In this document: positions 4,042 to 10,352 of the stretch, piece after piece
How the letters are laid out: each line of letters starts with the position of its first letter
How positions within the stretch are numbered: the first letter of the stretch is position 1
Source of the DNA: Bacteroidota bacterium
Lineage (GTDB): Bacteria > Bacteroidota > Bacteroidia > Bacteroidales > UBA7960
DNA length: 64,000 nt
Assembly: GCA_007694165.1 (NCBI GenBank)
Contig: RECE01000245.1
Span: forward strand, 4,962 to 68,961
Reading direction: 5' to 3'
Translations under genes and position numbers: made by a program
Notes under the pieces: generated by a model
Seen by the model: only the letters and a program-made list of their open reading frames with translations
Database searches by the model: none
Told to the model about the DNA's origin: nothing

Positions 4042-5019
4042 ATGCTATTTGTAGAAAACGATTCCCTCGACCCCTACTTTAATATCGCCGCAGAAGAATA
4101 CCTGCTCAAAAATTTTGAAAGTGACGTTATCATGCTGTGGCGAAGCAATCCATCTGTGATTGTAGGCAAACACCAAAACACCCTTGCCGAAATCAATTTA
4201 GGTTTTGTAAGAAAAAACAACATTCCTGTAATCCGGAGATTAACAGGGGGAGGCACAGTGTTTCATGATCCCGGAAATATCAACTTTACCTTTATCAAGC
4301 AAGCCGAAAAGGAAAAACTGGTGGATTTTAAAGCCCATACAGCCCCGGTGATTGATTTTTTGAACAACATTGGGGTAGACGCACGTTTTGAGGGGAAGAA
4401 CGACTTGAGGGTAAATGGACTCAAGATTTCGGGCAATGCAGAGCATATATTTAAAAATAAAGTATTGCATCATGGCACCCTTCTTTTCGATGCAAATTTG
4501 CAAACTCTCAGCGAGTCTATCAAATCAAGAGAACCCAATTTTACAAGCAAAGCTGTAAAATCTGTAAGAAGTACGGTTGTAAATATAGCTTCACTGCCGG
4601 GAGTTTCTATGGGAAGAGAAGAATTTATGGAGAAACTGGGGACTTATTTGCAGGGTTACTTTAAAAATATCAATACCTATCAGTTTAATGATGATGACAG
4701 GAGGAATGTTGAAAAGCTTAAACAGGAAAAGTATACCCAGTGGATTTGGAATTATGGCTACTCGCCCCAATACACATTCAAAAATTCCGCAAGTATTCTC
4801 AACAGAAATATTCTGGTCGAACTGACGGTAAAAAAAGGGATTATAGAAAACCTGAGGCTTTGTATTGATCTCATCAATCAGGATAACAATCCCCTGGTAC
4901 AGGCCCTCAATGGTCAGGCACACAACCCTGAGACCGTGGAGAGTGCTCTGAGCAATCAGAATTTTATGGGTTATAACCAGATTGCCGATAAATGGTTATT
5001 GACGGGCTTGTTTTTTTAG
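4042..5019 (+). CDS. lplA: Lipoate-protein ligase A
   Basis: Motifs NIAAEEYL, RRLTGGGTVFHDPGNINFTF, KISGNA, LHHGTLL, W-WNYG-SP. Confidence 0.92.
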   Translation: MLFVENDSLDPYFNIAAEEYLLKNFESDVIMLWRSNPSVIVGKHQNTLAEINLGFVRKNNIPVIRRLTGGGTVFHDPGNINFTFIKQAEKEKLVDFKAHTAPVIDFLNNIGVDARFEGKNDLRVNGLKISGNAEHIFKNKVLHHGTLLFDANLQTLSESIKSREPNFTSKAVKSVRSTVVNIASLPGVSMGREEFMEKLGTYLQGYFKNINTYQFNDDDRRNVEKLKQEKYTQWIWNYGYSPQYTFKNSASILNRNILVELTVKKGIIENLRLCIDLINQDNNPLVQALNGQAHNPETVESALSNQNFMGYNQIADKWLLTGLFF

Positions 5020-5957
5020 GTTTCGTTGTCTGGTTTCACCTGTTCTATTTCTACAACCAGCCCTTCTTCTGCAAGAATGGTATTTTCAAATAAAGTTTGA
5101 GCCTCGTCAACAAATAAGGATAATTCATCGTAACGGGCTGAATAGTGCCCCATCATTAACTTTTTTACATTTGCCTTGCTGGCAATGGTAGCTGCCTCCA
5201 AGGCAGTGCAGTGTGTTTTTTCCTTTGCAATGTCGGCTTTATCGTTAAGAAAAGTTGCTTCATGGTAGAGAAGATCGGCATTGGCTATTTCCGTGATATA
5301 GTTTTCTGTATAACCAGTATCAGAGCAACATGCATAAACGCGGGGTGGTGAAGGGGGCAATGTCATTTTTTCATTGGGAATGATTTCCCCACTGGCGGTT
5401 CGGTAATCAGCACCATTTTTAATTGCAGGGATACTACTTACAGGAATATCGAACTGTTCAATGGCCTCCTTTCTTATATTCCTTTCTGAGGGTTTTTCTT
5501 TTATCAGAAATCCATAAGCCGGCAGCCGGTGCATCATTTCAATGGTTTCGATACTGATATGGTTATCAGAATACAGCAGTTGCTTTCCTTTGGTAATAAC
5601 ATGATACTGAATATCAAAACCGGGTTCAAGTTTTGATATACGGTATTGTACTTCTATAATTTCCTGTATTCCCGAAGGAGAATACACATGCAATTTTTTC
5701 TTTCTTCCCAGCAGATGCATCGAGAAAATCAACCCTGGAAGACCCAGATAATGGTCTCCATGTAAATGAGAAATAAAAATATGGTTGATCTTCATCAAGG
5801 GCAGGCGAAACCGCCTTATCTGCATCTGTGCCCCTTCAGCACAATCAATCAGCATGTATTTGTTGTGGTAGTTTACCAGTTGTGAAGAGGTAAGCCGGGT
5901 AGAAGTAGGTATAGCCGCAGACGAGCCCAGGATATGGACCTTGAAGTTATTGCTCAT
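5016..5957 (-). CDS. rnz: Ribonuclease Z (MBL fold)
   Basis: LGSSAAIPT, DCAEG, HLHGDH, exosite insertion, HEATF, GHYSARY. Confidence 0.93.
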   Translation of the reverse strand: MSNNFKVHILGSSAAIPTSTRLTSSQLVNYHNKYMLIDCAEGAQMQIRRFRLPLMKINHIFISHLHGDHYLGLPGLIFSMHLLGRKKKLHVYSPSGIQEIIEVQYRISKLEPGFDIQYHVITKGKQLLYSDNHISIETIEMMHRLPAYGFLIKEKPSERNIRKEAIEQFDIPVSSIPAIKNGADYRTASGEIIPNEKMTLPPSPPRVYACCSDTGYTENYITEIANADLLYHEATFLNDKADIAKEKTHCTALEAATIASKANVKKLMMGHYSARYDELSLFVDEAQTLFENTILAEEGLVVEIEQVKPDNET

Positions 5958-6004
5958 AGTAGATGGATAAAAAAACGGTAAAGGAGTTTGAGGAATAAAG
6001 ATGG

Positions 6005-7165
6005 TTATTGTTCATAACTTCCTTTCTTGAGCATCTTTGAGTTTTCAACCATCAGTTTACCCATGGCAACAAGGTGAATGATATTGAAATCCTGATCCAG
6101 TACCACCAGGTCAGCATCTTTCGCAACTTCTATTCTACCCTTATTTTTTAACCAGAGGATATCGGCAATGTTACTGGTGGCAACCGTTAAAGCAAGTTCA
6201 AGATCTATTTTCTCTTCCCTTACTGTATCAGCGATTTCGTCGAATACTGATTTTGGATAACCCATTTTAAGGCTTACCAGTTTGCCATTTTCATCAAAAT
6301 CGGGCAGGGAGCCACAAGCATCACTGGTCATGGTTATATGTTTAAGGGGTACCCCTGATTTGAGCAGGCCTGCAATGGCTTTGGATGGTTTTACTTCGTA
6401 TTGAGGAAAGTAAGGGTAGGAGCTCGCCGTTATATCAATATATCCTTTTTTGCCATAGGTTTTGGCATCTTCAAAAATATAAGAGTTGCGGTTGATATGA
6501 GTAGGAAGAAACTGTTTAAAGCTCAGTTCACTCATGGCCACAATTTCATAGAGGGGTTTAAAGGGGCTTTTGGCATCGCCCATATGAATATTTACTATAC
6601 CGCATTTCCCTCCAAGCATACCGCCTACCCGGGCATGGCCTGCCAGTCTGATGAGCTCGTGAGCAGACGGGAATGAACTTCTGTGGTCAGAAATGGCTAT
6701 TTCTCCCACACCTATTATTTCCTCAATCAGTGCAATGTCTTTACCAACATCTCCCATAATGGTGGGGGTGGGCACCTGGTAGGATCCGGTATACATCCAG
6801 GCACTCACACCTTCTTGTCTCAGTGCTTTAACTTTCATCAGCACAGACTCAAGATTTCGGGTCATGCCATCAGTTCCCAGGCAACCAATTACCGTAGTAA
6901 CCCCTGCTTCCAGCATGTGGCTGAGTTGCATTTCGGGTGTTCGGCTGGCCGGGCCCCCTTCTCCGCCTGCTCCTGCAATGTGTACATGCGCATCAATGAG
7001 GCCGGGAATAACCCTGAATCCCTTTAAGTCCATTACCTTCACTTCCAGCCCCTGAGGCACAGGGATACTTTCTTCTACAGCAATAATCTGGTTTCCAGCA
7101 ATAAGGATGTCTTTAATGCCCGATTTTTCCGGCGCGTACAGTTCGCAGTTTTTTAATAATAGCAT
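6005..7165 (-). CDS. iadA: Isoaspartyl dipeptidase (beta-aspartyl peptidase, IadA, amidohydrolase fold)
   Basis: IDAHVHIAGAGGEGG, GCLGTDG, GEIAISDHRSS, HMGD, PTHINR, TSDACGSLP. Confidence 0.93.
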   Translation of the reverse strand: MLLLKNCELYAPEKSGIKDILIAGNQIIAVEESIPVPQGLEVKVMDLKGFRVIPGLIDAHVHIAGAGGEGGPASRTPEMQLSHMLEAGVTTVIGCLGTDGMTRNLESVLMKVKALRQEGVSAWMYTGSYQVPTPTIMGDVGKDIALIEEIIGVGEIAISDHRSSFPSAHELIRLAGHARVGGMLGGKCGIVNIHMGDAKSPFKPLYEIVAMSELSFKQFLPTHINRNSYIFEDAKTYGKKGYIDITASSYPYFPQYEVKPSKAIAGLLKSGVPLKHITMTSDACGSLPDFDENGKLVSLKMGYPKSVFDEIADTVREEKIDLELALTVATSNIADILWLKNKGRIEVAKDADLVVLDQDFNIIHLVAMGKLMVENSKMLKKGSYEQ

Positions 7166-7281
7166 AGTTATCGAAATGTTTTAATAGTATTTTGTTGATT
7201 TTATAAAAGATCAAAACCTCTGCAGTTCTCTCCTTAAACTCAATGGAGGATAACCAAAAGGAGGTTCTGTCAATTACCTTA

Positions 7282-9192
7282 TTATTCTGATGAATATTTA
7301 TTGATCAAGTCCCTGAGAAATGGTTTGATCATGTTTAGCAAGATGTTTTCTTTCTCATTTTCAATATAGCTAACAGTTTTCAGGGTATGGCTGTTCATAC
7401 TTAATTTTATTTGGGCATCGGATACTTCAATGAGGTATCCGCCGGGAAGCAACATGTTTTTCATGCTTTCCTCTGCCCAATTGGGGTGGTCCAGGATAAT
7501 AAGATCAGCTCCTTCATGAAAAAAACCGTAATCATATATATTTTCTCTGCTATGGTTAAAAATGGCGAAGGCAGTTTCAGGGTGTCTGAGTATAATTTTT
7601 ACATTCTGGTCATGGCTGGTGTTTTTGAAAAAATACTTTCCGTTGAAAAAAACACCTTCAGGAGCCAATGCACCCACAAATGTATCCGAATCGATCTTTT
7701 TTAGTTCCCCTAAGATTTCCGTCATCATATATTGGGTTATCTGGTTCCCTGCAATTATGGGTATTCTTGCCAGTTCGGGCTTTTTAAAATGAGACAGCAG
7801 AATCATCTCTGGTACGTCGATACTCCCGCCATAGGCAGGGGCAAGATGCATAAAGACTCCTGGTCCGGCATTGATCTCTATGATGCCAAAAATCCCCTCC
7901 CCCCAGGGTGTTGATATATCAGCTGCAAGAACATCAATACCCAGGCACTTAACTTTAAAAAAGCCTGCAATAGACTCTGCCAGTTCAATGTTTTGGGGAT
8001 GTATTTCATGGGTAACATTTACAGATACTCCGCCGGCAGAAATATTGGCAACTCTTCGCAGGAAAATGCGTTCACCATCAGCGGGTATACTGTTTAGCTG
8101 AAGATTCTGGAGCAACAGGTAGTCTAAAAGTTCTTTATCAATATGTATTTTAGCCAACGGAGAACGGGCATTGTCGAGCCGGATTTCTTTTTTGTTTTCC
8201 TCCTCAATGAGTTTTTCTATCGTATCCTGTCCATTGCCATCCACATAGGCGGGTATTCTCTTGAGTGCTGCGGCAAATTTTCCGTCAATGGTAAGAATCC
8301 GGTGATCATGACCTGCAATATGCTCTTGTACTATGGCTCCGTCAAAGTAAATATCTTCTTTCTCCGAAATGTCCATGATATTCTGGAAAGCAATTTTTAC
8401 CTCCGACTCATTTTTGATACCGGTAGTAACACCAATGCCCTTGTGGCCGGACACGGGTTTTACAACGACAGGAAAACCCAGCTTTCGGGCTTCCGAAAGA
8501 GCTTCTGTTTCTGTAAAGCAATTGCGGCCGGCAGGGGTGGGAAAACCGCACATGAGCAAAAATTCTGTCACCATATCTTTGTACATGGTAAATTCGGTAT
8601 CTTTTATTCCATCGGTGTGCATAGTGGTTGAGCGGCCGCGAAGTTGTTTAACCCCATAGCCCCATTGGTACTGATTTTCTTCTTCAAGAAAAAATACCGG
8701 GATTTCGTTTTTCATGCCCGCTTCTACAAGAGCATAAAGGGTAGGACCGCCCAAAACGGACTTGTCAAATATTCTTTTTAAAAGCTCAAACTTTTTCAAG
8801 AAATTGAACTCTTCAGTTTTACCATCATTGATAGACTTGAACCAATCACTTACCAAAACAGCGGCATCTTCAGCGGTATAATCATCGAGAAATTCAATGG
8901 CTATAACATAATCATCACCATCTTCAGTAATTGATAATTCATTGATATGAAGGTCTATGTCCATCCTTAAAACCTCCAGAAGTGTATGGGCAAATAAATC
9001 TGCCACCGTTTGTAAATTAAAGGGTTTTAACTTTGGGAATGCCTCAAAAACATAAGGTTTGTAAAAATCTACCTCCGGGCCGTCAGTTGCAATATGGAGG
9101 TTAAACACCAGCGCTTTTACAGCCAGATAATGGCTTGGGCCATAATAGAAGTAAAACTTCCTGACATCAAAATCATTCTCTTGTGTTCTCAT
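7282..9192 (-). CDS. cphA2: Cyanophycin synthetase, CphA2-like (N domain + ATP-grasp domain + short degenerate C-terminal domain), 636 aa
   Basis: ORF 7282..9261, probable ATG at 9192 (MRTQENDFDV). Motifs GGPTLYAL, QWGYGVKQLRG, PVVVKPVSGHKGIGVT, ANISAGG, GIDV, EINAGPG, RIPII. There is no Mur-ligase GTNGKTT P-loop, and the protein is much shorter than a typical CphA1 (about 870 aa). Flanked by cphB and iadA. Confidence 0.8.
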   Translation of the reverse strand: MRTQENDFDVRKFYFYYGPSHYLAVKALVFNLHIATDGPEVDFYKPYVFEAFPKLKPFNLQTVADLFAHTLLEVLRMDIDLHINELSITEDGDDYVIAIEFLDDYTAEDAAVLVSDWFKSINDGKTEEFNFLKKFELLKRIFDKSVLGGPTLYALVEAGMKNEIPVFFLEEENQYQWGYGVKQLRGRSTTMHTDGIKDTEFTMYKDMVTEFLLMCGFPTPAGRNCFTETEALSEARKLGFPVVVKPVSGHKGIGVTTGIKNESEVKIAFQNIMDISEKEDIYFDGAIVQEHIAGHDHRILTIDGKFAAALKRIPAYVDGNGQDTIEKLIEEENKKEIRLDNARSPLAKIHIDKELLDYLLLQNLQLNSIPADGERIFLRRVANISAGGVSVNVTHEIHPQNIELAESIAGFFKVKCLGIDVLAADISTPWGEGIFGIIEINAGPGVFMHLAPAYGGSIDVPEMILLSHFKKPELARIPIIAGNQITQYMMTEILGELKKIDSDTFVGALAPEGVFFNGKYFFKNTSHDQNVKIILRHPETAFAIFNHSRENIYDYGFFHEGADLIILDHPNWAEESMKNMLLPGGYLIEVSDAQIKLSMNSHTLKTVSYIENEKENILLNMIKPFLRDLINKYSSE

Positions 9193-9258
9193 AGGGCCTG
9201 GGTTTATTTGATAATGGAAAATACTACAGAAGTAAACCTGGATGATCCCGGCAGTATT

Positions 9259-9266
9259 CAAACCTA
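9259..9266 (-). promoter_or_regulatory. Possible Bacteroidota -7 box (TAGGTTTG) of an internal promoter for the cphA2-like gene
   Basis: Matches TAnnTTTG on the minus strand, about 65 bp upstream of the ATG at 9192, inside the 221-bp cphB-cphA2 gap. Confidence 0.3.
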
Positions 9267-9413
9267 CGGAAAAAATGCGAATTGTGAGCCAATTGTCTTC
9301 AAAAAAGTTGTTGAATATGCTTTTTCTTTTTCCGGCTTGCGATCCAATGGCCGCTTATGTATAGTTTAAATGTACATCTGCATTCATTAAGATTAATGGT
9401 GGAGGTTTACCTG

Positions 9414-10313
9414 TTAAGCAGTAGTATCAGTCATGGGGATTGTGCGGGAATTATCTTGAGAAGAAACAAATTTCAGGGTTTTCCAGGAGTTAAGATTGAA
9501 AAATGCCCCATGTTGCAAAAAGCCAAGTTGTATGCCGTCAATAGATATTCTTTCATTCTCCCGGATTTGGTCAAAATTGGAAAAGGTAAGATTTTCGGTG
9601 GAGACCACCGTAACAATCCCTGTACCTTTCACATACATCGTATTGTCAGGCAATATGGTTATGGAAGTGTTTTCGCCGATACCAATTCCCCTTTGGGTAT
9701 ATCCATTGCAAAGGAATTGAGTCAGCCGTCCCAGCCGGCCTCTGGCAACAAAGTGGGTGTCGATGGTAATTTTCTCAATAAAACCAAAACCTTTATCATA
9801 TTTAACCGAACCTTTCATCAGCCCCTGGTTGTCACCATCATATGTCATGGGGTCTGCGGCTGCGGACGCACCGGCTGAAGTACCTGCCACAGTAAGTCTT
9901 TCGTTCAAAAACCTGTATTTGATTTGGTCAATGAGCTTTGAGCCGAGCAAAATCCTGGTGAGTCTTACCTGATCGCCACCGGTAAAAAATACCATATCAG
10001 CCTTTTGAAGCTTTTCGAAATAATGGTTCTTATCCGCTTCCCGTGAGTTACGTATGTCGAAAATATCAATATTCTTTACTCCCAGTTCACGGAATACATA
10101 ATAATAATCCTCTCCACACTCAATAGGGTATAGGGTTGCAGTTGGAATGATGATAACATTTTCAGCTTTGTTGATTCCAATGAGATCACCCAGGACAATT
10201 CTCTCGTCTTTGCGGTCTTCAGCCCCACCTATTAATACAAGGTTTCCTTTTTCAGCGGATGTTGCAGGTGTTCTCATTCGCATTATCTTTTTTGGGACGA
10301 TTACATGGTGCAA
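9414..10313 (-). CDS. cphB: Cyanophycinase (peptidase S51), no signal peptide
   Basis: LIGGAED, IIPTA, FFTGGDQ, GTSAGA (Ser nucleophile), DTHF-x-x-RGRLGRL (His), GIGIGENT (Glu). Confidence 0.92.
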   Translation of the reverse strand: MHHVIVPKKIMRMRTPATSAEKGNLVLIGGAEDRKDERIVLGDLIGINKAENVIIIPTATLYPIECGEDYYYVFRELGVKNIDIFDIRNSREADKNHYFEKLQKADMVFFTGGDQVRLTRILLGSKLIDQIKYRFLNERLTVAGTSAGASAAADPMTYDGDNQGLMKGSVKYDKGFGFIEKITIDTHFVARGRLGRLTQFLCNGYTQRGIGIGENTSITILPDNTMYVKGTGIVTVVSTENLTFSNFDQIRENERISIDGIQLGFLQHGAFFNLNSWKTLKFVSSQDNSRTIPMTDTTA

Positions 10314-10344: not shown

Positions 10345-10352
10345 CAAATTTA
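10345..10352 (-). promoter_or_regulatory. Bacteroidota sigma-A -7 box (TAAATTTG) upstream of cphB
   Basis: TAnnTTTG on the minus strand, about 30 bp upstream of the cphB start. Confidence 0.5.

Follow-up and report, generated by a model that had tools for sequence, protein, structure and literature searches.

A probable CphA2-type cyanophycin synthetase of a non-cyanobacterial clade, encoded between a gene for cyanophycinase and one for isoaspartyl dipeptidase in a Bacteroidales genome

CphA2 is called a cyanobacterial enzyme in passages of PMC10206079, PMC10273328, and PMC9262961, which come from the main laboratory of the field. Its M domain is described as having neither the P-loop nor the lid module (PMC9427784), and the Cx19HxxEH motif, which generates primers in the N domain of CphA1, is reported to be absent from CphA2 (PMC9262961). 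For the Stanieria enzyme, StCphA2, a salt bridge from D212 to the Arg of the first dipeptide and a backbone contact at A453 have been described, and alanine mutants of D362, R389, N393, and S395, which lie near a putative dipeptide site, had lowered or abolished activity (PMC10273328). A non-cyanobacterial host has been described for the putative CphAs of Bacillus horikoshii 20a, which have a CphA2-like composition, keep the residues for Asp addition, and lack those for Arg addition; these proteins are known here by their description in PMC5532821. No report of CphA2 in Bacteroidota was found in the literature, where paper supplements may list taxa. Here, a CphA2-type gene is described from a stretch of 64,000 nucleotides, called the window (positions 4,962 to 68,961 of contig RECE01000245.1, assembly GCA_007694165.1), which belongs to a Bacteroidales genome. 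It is considered likely that this gene encodes a functional CphA2-type cyanophycin synthetase working in a cphB/iadA turnover module. The enzyme itself is genuinely of CphA2 type, probably functional, and a member of a non-cyanobacterial clade.

The open reading frame (ORF) begins with an ATG at 9192 on the minus strand and ends with a stop codon at 7282-7284, encoding 636 amino acids (aa) plus the stop, and the plus-strand frame over 7282-9192 is riddled with stops. The coordinates 7282-9192 and the length of 636 aa had been given correctly in a first-pass annotation of the window, to which the minus strand is added here as a missing detail. A TTG-started frame of the same ORF is longer and reaches 9261; the ATG at 9192 was preferred as the start because four orthologues, at loci L009, L010, L012, and L014, begin at the same methionine with M-(R/Q/K)-T-(Q/K)-(E/D). 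The gene and its parts are as follows:

7282..9192, minus strand: cphA2-type cyanophycin synthetase gene (ORF and translation, PDB scores, AlphaFold2 model, Foldseek, ratio of nonsynonymous to synonymous substitution rates)
8755..9192, minus strand: N domain, approximately residues 1-146, without Cx19HxxEH (boundary transferred by alignment from StCphA2, in which the N domain is 1-158)
7765..8754, minus strand: G domain with the predicted ATP-grasp active site, approximately residues 147-476 (Pfam ATP-grasp matches at residues 206-318)
7285..7764, minus strand: vestigial M domain, approximately residues 477-636, a Mur-ligase-like core without ATP site or lid module (length, TIGR02068 coverage, model)
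7732..7752, minus strand: site at which the P-loop of Mur ligases has disappeared, now AGNQITQ at residues 481-487 (aligned block)

The segments quoted in the first-pass annotation (FDVRKFYFYYGPSHYL..ALVF, GGPTLYAL, EEENQYQWGYGVKQLRGRSTTMHTD, KPVSGHKGIGVT, and NVKIILRHP...GFFHEGADLIILDHP) were all found in the translation, but the spacing that had been written for EEENQYQWGYGVKQLRGRSTTMHTD was one residue off in two places. The short tail proposed to follow RIPII was present: RIPII occupies residues 476-480, which leaves a tail of 156 residues. The ratio of nonsynonymous to synonymous substitution rates (dN/dS) was 0.146 for the comparison with the 94%-identical orthologue in L009, and the gene is under purifying selection; dS was saturated for the comparisons with L010, L012, and L014.

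Among PDB sequences searched with phmmer, the best match of the 636-aa protein was 7ta5 (458.5 bits, E 3.4e-136, query residues 6-597), which by its entry title is Gloeothece citriformis CphA2, followed by 8fxh (422.4 bits, residues 7-575), which together with 8fxi is titled Stanieria CphA2. Four CphA1 sequences in the PDB scored 190-209 bits, and GshAB scored approximately 97 bits. The CphA family model TIGR02068 gave 313.9 bits versus its cut-off of 850 and was covered only at model positions 80-568 of 862, the Pfam scan returned ATP-grasp families alone, and no match of the protein to PF18921 (the Cyanophycin_syn N domain) was obtained in that scan. An AlphaFold2 model built from a 46-row alignment had a mean predicted local distance difference test score (pLDDT) of 93.2 and a predicted template modelling score of 0.89. 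For the vestigial M domain the pLDDT exceeded 90, and this part of the model could be superposed on the solved CphA2 structures. In Foldseek, 7ta5 was again the best match (template modelling (TM) score 0.86 on the query and 0.93 on the target, root mean square deviation 2.6, 40% identity), chains of 8fxi and 8fxh came next (8fxi with TM scores of 0.86/0.86), and the CphA1 chains gave query TM scores of 0.72-0.79, the model covering just 0.55-0.71 of their length. Superposition of a predicted model on CphA2 structures had been suggested previously, and the fold agreed. An unrelated ATP-grasp ligase such as GshAB (3ln6/3ln7) had been raised as a competing identity; its ATP-grasp fold is related, but the match to the GshAB model NF002688 (158 bits versus a cut-off of 425) was confined to residues 203-470, the likeness overall to approximately residues 150-470, and no resemblance extends to the N or M domain, so that the architecture differs.

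Motifs and phylogeny were assessed with 58 sequences, hand-picked from the lists of matches, other listed matches being left out. These comprised the 636-aa protein, 13 labelled relatives, 12 representatives of a library clustered at 50% identity, and 12 members of the cyanobacterial CphA2 group (P0134 and 11 labelled relatives, one of them labelled Sericytochromatia), together with the CphA1 encoded by the same genome, three named CphA1 proteins from plasmids, and 16 longer representatives. The plasmid collection from which the three plasmid rows came held CphA1 and GshAB only and no CphA2-like record. At the position of the CphA1 motif G-x-x-G-K-[ST], the 636-aa protein aligned with A-G-N-Q-I-T-Q and a two-residue deletion. 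GxxGK[ST] was absent from this site in all 38 short-form rows, cyanobacterial CphA2 included, whereas CphA1 rows carried GTNGK[TS] and the CphA1 of the same genome GSAGKS; the loss of the P-loop proposed earlier was thereby confirmed. A regular-expression scan for Cx19HxxEH had no match among the 38 short-form rows, which include the 636-aa protein, and matched 12 of the 20 CphA1-like rows. The glycine-rich ATP loop, G249-H-K-G-I-G-V255, was intact when aligned to 7ta5 and 8fxh.

Twelve residues of StCphA2, each described as touching cyanophycin or as needed for activity (PMC10273328), were mapped onto the protein through P0134, which matches 8fxh with 900 bits and has all 12 under the numbering of that paper. 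Nine were identical in the Bacteroidales protein (P150, T151, T190, R298, D352, R379, N383, S385, and G445), and the four positions of the alanine mutants, D362, R389, N393, and S395 of StCphA2, were all retained. T190 (T202 in StCphA2) is the sole tested position that separates CphA2 from CphA1: all 13 cyanobacterial rows have threonine there, as do 15 of 18 in the protein's own clade but only 2 of 20 CphA1-like rows.

The protein thus compares with its closest described relatives, the CphA2 enzymes of Gloeothece citriformis and Stanieria, in length class (636 aa versus 629 and 642), in the succession of an N domain, an ATP-grasp G domain, and a vestigial M domain, and in the absence of both motifs on either side. 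It differs in belonging to a separate clade at 33-40% identity in the Foldseek alignments. With CphA1 (7lg5, 7lgm, 7lgn, 7wac; TIGR02068) it shares homologous N and G domains and the cyanophycin-binding R298, D352, N383, S385, and G445, but its M domain lacks the P-loop and the lid part, Cx19HxxEH is missing, and the second site, which adds Arg, is absent. The earlier view that the protein resembles CphA2 more closely than CphA1 is therefore upheld by PDB scores, loss of the P-loop, absence of the N-domain motif, fold, and placement among the short forms.

Trees were obtained by quick IQ-TREE searches, with the Shimodaira-Hasegawa-like approximate likelihood-ratio test (SH-aLRT) as the only support measure; several rows were of deviant composition, and P0138 and P0144 formed long branches. 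In the tree from 631 columns, the short forms were placed on one side of a branch with an SH-aLRT of 100, apart from CphA1. The cyanobacterial rows together with P0131 formed a clade of 13 rows (SH-aLRT 100), and the 636-aa protein fell in a clade of 19 rows with Bacteroidales, Cloacimonetes, and KSB1-labelled rows (SH-aLRT 99). When the alignment was restricted to the N and G domains (466 columns), the same three groupings came back, each with an SH-aLRT of 100. The phylogeny proposed in the first-pass annotation as a check thus places the protein with the CphA2 short forms and not with CphA1 in both trees, outside the cyanobacterial clade and in a sister or parallel clade. That annotation had suggested that the family extended beyond cyanobacteria either through horizontal transfer or as an unrecognised clade; the tree favours the clade, and recent transfer from cyanobacteria is contradicted by the position outside the 13-row clade. 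Among 10 cluster representatives the sole organism label was KSB1, and P0125, P0126, P0130, P0132, P0133, and P0135 were untyped. Three rows with decayed P-loops (P0160, P0170, and P0190) fell among CphA1-like proteins outside the CphA2 clade, and therefore loss of the Arg site alone does not define CphA2.

Two further rows are recorded for their own sake. P0133, a member of the short-form clade, has 916 aa, of which residues 7-622 were matched, leaving approximately 290 extra C-terminal residues without a Pfam match. P0341, labelled 'Candidatus Sericytochromatia bacterium', lay inside the cyanobacterial CphA2 clade near the Microcoleus and Allocoleopsis rows, and its label may reflect binning. 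Sericytochromatia are non-photosynthetic relatives of cyanobacteria.

The gene is flanked on both sides by genes with assignable functions in cyanophycin breakdown:

9414..10283, minus strand, upstream: cyanophycinase gene (S51 peptidase, CphB-type) with the serine motif GTSAGA (TIGR02069, 194.9 bits versus a curated cut-off of 126.6; Pfam Peptidase_S51)
6005..7165, minus strand, downstream: iadA, isoaspartyl (beta-aspartyl) dipeptidase gene (TIGR01975, 474.9 bits versus a curated cut-off of 331.25, full length)

The first ATG was taken as the start of the cyanophycinase, for which a TTG-started frame extends to 10313; inspection by eye revealed no hydrophobic, signal-like stretch at its N-terminus. 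An RNase Z gene follows iadA downstream. The order cphB-cphA2-iadA-rnz-lplA-HEAT was kept at five of six related loci from Bacteroidales metagenome-assembled genomes (MAGs), and none of these neighbours was seen at the sixth, L013 (55% identity), whose contig is 6.2 kb long. A cyanophycinase in the cluster and a CphA1 in the same genome are also features of the Gloeothece and Stanieria systems, and IadA within the cluster is a difference from them. Co-occurrence with CphA1, a published trait of CphA2, is found in this Bacteroidales genome: a 911-aa CphA1 with Cx19HxxEH and the P-loop variant GSAGKS is encoded on another contig (G000:C87, L015:9342-12889), scoring 726.8 bits with TIGR02068, below the cut-off of 850. 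The 237-aa S51 peptidase preceding that gene scores as the dipeptidase PepE (309 bits versus a cut-off of 156) and not as a cyanophycinase. A genome-wide search revealed no second IadA gene, and nifH was not found in the genome, the best match reaching 45.9 bits versus a cut-off of 394, so that the host differs from those of the described enzymes in lacking nifH as well as in being non-photosynthetic. The genome measures 5.27 Mb, with 98.4% completeness and 8.3% contamination. At a contig edge, G000:C78:21-620, a fragment of another cyanophycinase was detected with 152 bits, which exceeds the cut-off; its origin is doubtful given the 8.3% contamination.

Expression signals were also scanned. 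The sequence TAnnTTTG, a -7 promoter consensus of Bacteroides, occurred 74 times in the window versus 68 expected, a chance frequency that gives the motif no weight overall. Single minus-strand matches, which are no more than leads, were located upstream of both start codons: at 9259-9266 for cphA2 (67 nt from its ATG) and at 10345-10352 for cphB (62 nt from its ATG); none was present between cphA2 and iadA. Terminator-like sites in the promoter and terminator scan were at chance level, and the sigma-70 promoter model is ill-suited to Bacteroidota. Metatranscriptome run X10 of the same study, approximately 6% of which was sampled, gave 0 reads on the stretch.

That the gene is a foreign piece, either a cyanobacterial gene misbinned or misassembled into this genome or a very recent arrival from cyanobacteria, would agree with the 8.3% contamination estimated for the bin and with the published restriction of CphA2 to cyanobacteria. 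It is nevertheless contradicted by several observations. All six loci among the genome contigs (55-94% identity) bear either the title 'MAG: Bacteroidales bacterium' or the title 'uncultured Bacteroidales bacterium', which supports a Bacteroidales host, the contig taxonomy being a point that had been proposed for checking. Across the loci that share the gene order given above, identities of neighbouring genes track that of cphA2, reaching 92-98% in L009; a chimeric contig, which had been considered earlier, is therefore argued against. A single contig from run X1, from which this DNA may stem, spans 4900-9994, and a contig from run X3, which belongs to another study, bridges iadA and cphA2. 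GC content in the cluster is 0.40-0.45, similar to the flanks, the protein lies outside the strongly supported cyanobacterial clade, and cyanobacterial labels were absent from its closest relatives (see below). A chimera or recent cyanobacterial transfer was rejected on synteny, GC content, the contigs of X1 and X3, and tree position, and we regard a foreign origin of this kind as extremely improbable. An unrecognised non-cyanobacterial clade of CphA2 is supported instead.

The distribution of the family was examined in protein databases and in sampled genomes. The best 120 of 1603 database relatives had 56-100% identity and lengths of 628-706 aa, and they carried the product names 'cyanophycin synthetase', 'acetate--CoA ligase family protein', and 'hypothetical protein'. 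Organism labels were available for 14 of these 120, comprising 11 Bacteroidales, Bacteroidota, or Bacteroidetes, one Cloacimonetes, and two 'bacterium', and none of the 14 was cyanobacterial. Within the order, a CphA2-like gene (full-length match of at least 660 bits, 49-64% identity) was found in 24 of 300 other sampled genomes. There was no such match in the three genomes of the same family, and none at E 1e-80 or better when 400 genomes were sampled across the phylum, only seven of the listed rows there being of the same order. A CphA1-like match was present in 20 of the 24 CphA2-bearing genomes versus 6 of the 276 others, counts that are not independent because the genomes are kin. The 24 genomes contained 27 CphA2-like loci, of which 12 had iadA as a neighbour, 7 had cphB, and 3 had a CphA1-like gene.

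The strong co-occurrence with CphA1-like genes, and the oligomerisation known for CphA2 enzymes from the published descriptions, would also suit a protein without catalysis of its own that assists or regulates either CphA1 or the cyanophycinase. Such a role is very unlikely in our estimation, since neither the glycine-rich ATP loop nor the residues of the G domain have been lost, the dN/dS value applies to a full-length enzyme, and the solved homologues (40% identity in Foldseek) are active enzymes (PMC10273328).

Several observations on individual genomes accompany these counts. Four genomes (G272, G066, G058, and G155) apparently have two CphA2-like copies, with one copy per context type in G272 and G058, and in one of the four a copy is split across two contig ends. 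One in-frame TAA codon was seen in each of the matches G205:C723:15154-17076 and G038:C55:4273-6177, which may be pseudogenes or sequencing errors. L025, L026, L027, L029, L030, L032, L036, L043, and L044 represent a stand-alone CphA2-like subgroup with frames of approximately 645-705 aa, beside which neither cyanophycin genes nor other conserved neighbours occur; in P0079 the match starts at residue 42, which suggests an N-terminal extension. Of the 20 genomes that carry both genes, 15 have a CphA1-like frame of just 732-785 aa (for example L041:2218-4284 and L042:4205-6271; compare P0177 and P0190) versus approximately 880-920 aa in ordinary CphA1. P0177 (741 aa) retains Cyanophycin_syn, RimK, and Mur_ligase_M with the P-loop GSLGKT. 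These short CphA1-like genes, together with P0190, P0160, and P0170, may represent further independent reductions of the M domain.

A number of points weigh against a functional CphA2 in a cyanophycin turnover module. Three of the 12 contact positions are changed, and consistently so within the clade: H208, D212, and A453 of StCphA2 correspond to I196, E200, and G443. Most of the tested residues are common to CphA1 and so speak for cyanophycin binding and not for a preference for dipeptides, and the dipeptide site of CphA2 has been seen in no structure according to PMC10273328. At 14 of the 27 loci in the order no cyanophycin gene adjoins (5 of these 14 lie on contigs shorter than 8 kb), and no other conserved neighbour was found around the 14 stand-alone CphA2-like genes; therefore, context backs the subgroup of the window better than the clade as a whole. 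The remaining short-form lineages form a polytomy in the quick trees with SH-aLRT support only. Some of these points, namely the clade-wide changes at I196, E200, and G443 and the half of the loci without cyanophycin neighbours, would also be expected of a CphA2-shaped ligase with another substrate or product, such as dipeptides of beta-Asp-Lys type, extension with Asp only, or a peptide that is not cyanophycin. The many clusters of similar features and approximately 600-640 aa that the Atlas lists for Pseudomonadota and Planctomycetota point the same way. This explanation is nonetheless considered unlikely, because all four residues whose alanine mutants lowered or abolished StCphA2 activity are kept, the replacement of D212 by glutamate is conservative in that charge is retained, the score to solved CphA2 is very high, and the two neighbours in the window are precisely those enzymes that would generate beta-Asp-Arg and use it up.

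For the favoured CphA2-type enzyme, a mechanism can be proposed by analogy with StCphA2 and the Gloeothece citriformis enzyme (GcCphA2). At the single ATP-grasp site of the G domain, a cyanophycin chain would be phosphorylated on its C-terminal backbone carboxylate and then joined to the amino group of a preformed beta-Asp-Arg, at a cost of one ATP per dipeptide. Polymerisation of beta-Asp-Arg by the Bacteroidales protein is inferred from these relatives. The M remnant would be structural, serving oligomerisation, and would be unable to add arginine. CphA1, encoded elsewhere in the genome, would start the polymer; the cyanophycinase, predicted to be of cytoplasmic type, would yield beta-Asp-Arg from it, and IadA would cleave the dipeptide to Asp and Arg. 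The cphB-cphA2-iadA module may thus set the fate of the dipeptide, either re-storage in polymer or release as free amino acids. Sequence, fold, motif losses, clade membership, context, co-occurrence, and purifying selection were shown, and substrate, product, and the balancing role are put forward on that basis.

The Bacteroidales clade contradicts the published cyanobacteria-only range of CphA2. The finding is a taxonomic extension and involves no new mechanism. The range is wider by the 24 genomes of the order and by hundreds of metagenomic proteins named 'acetate--CoA ligase family protein' or 'cyanophycin synthetase', and CphA2 is uncoupled from nitrogen fixation and photosynthesis, the host being a non-photosynthetic sediment bacterium. 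IadA is placed inside a cyanophycin cluster in a phylum whose dipeptidase step the literature calls largely unidentified, and new enzymes are on offer for the production of cyanophycin from dipeptides. More speculatively, CphA2 might be an old family, a large branch of which has escaped notice in Bacteroidales that are anaerobic and non-diazotrophic, with Cloacimonetes- and KSB1-labelled relatives. Heterotrophs of this kind would use the module to return beta-Asp-Arg to storage for one ATP each. If this tentative picture were true, the dipeptides could include those scavenged from the cyanophycin of other organisms, and nitrogen would then be traded in sediments with cyanophycin dipeptides as the currency.

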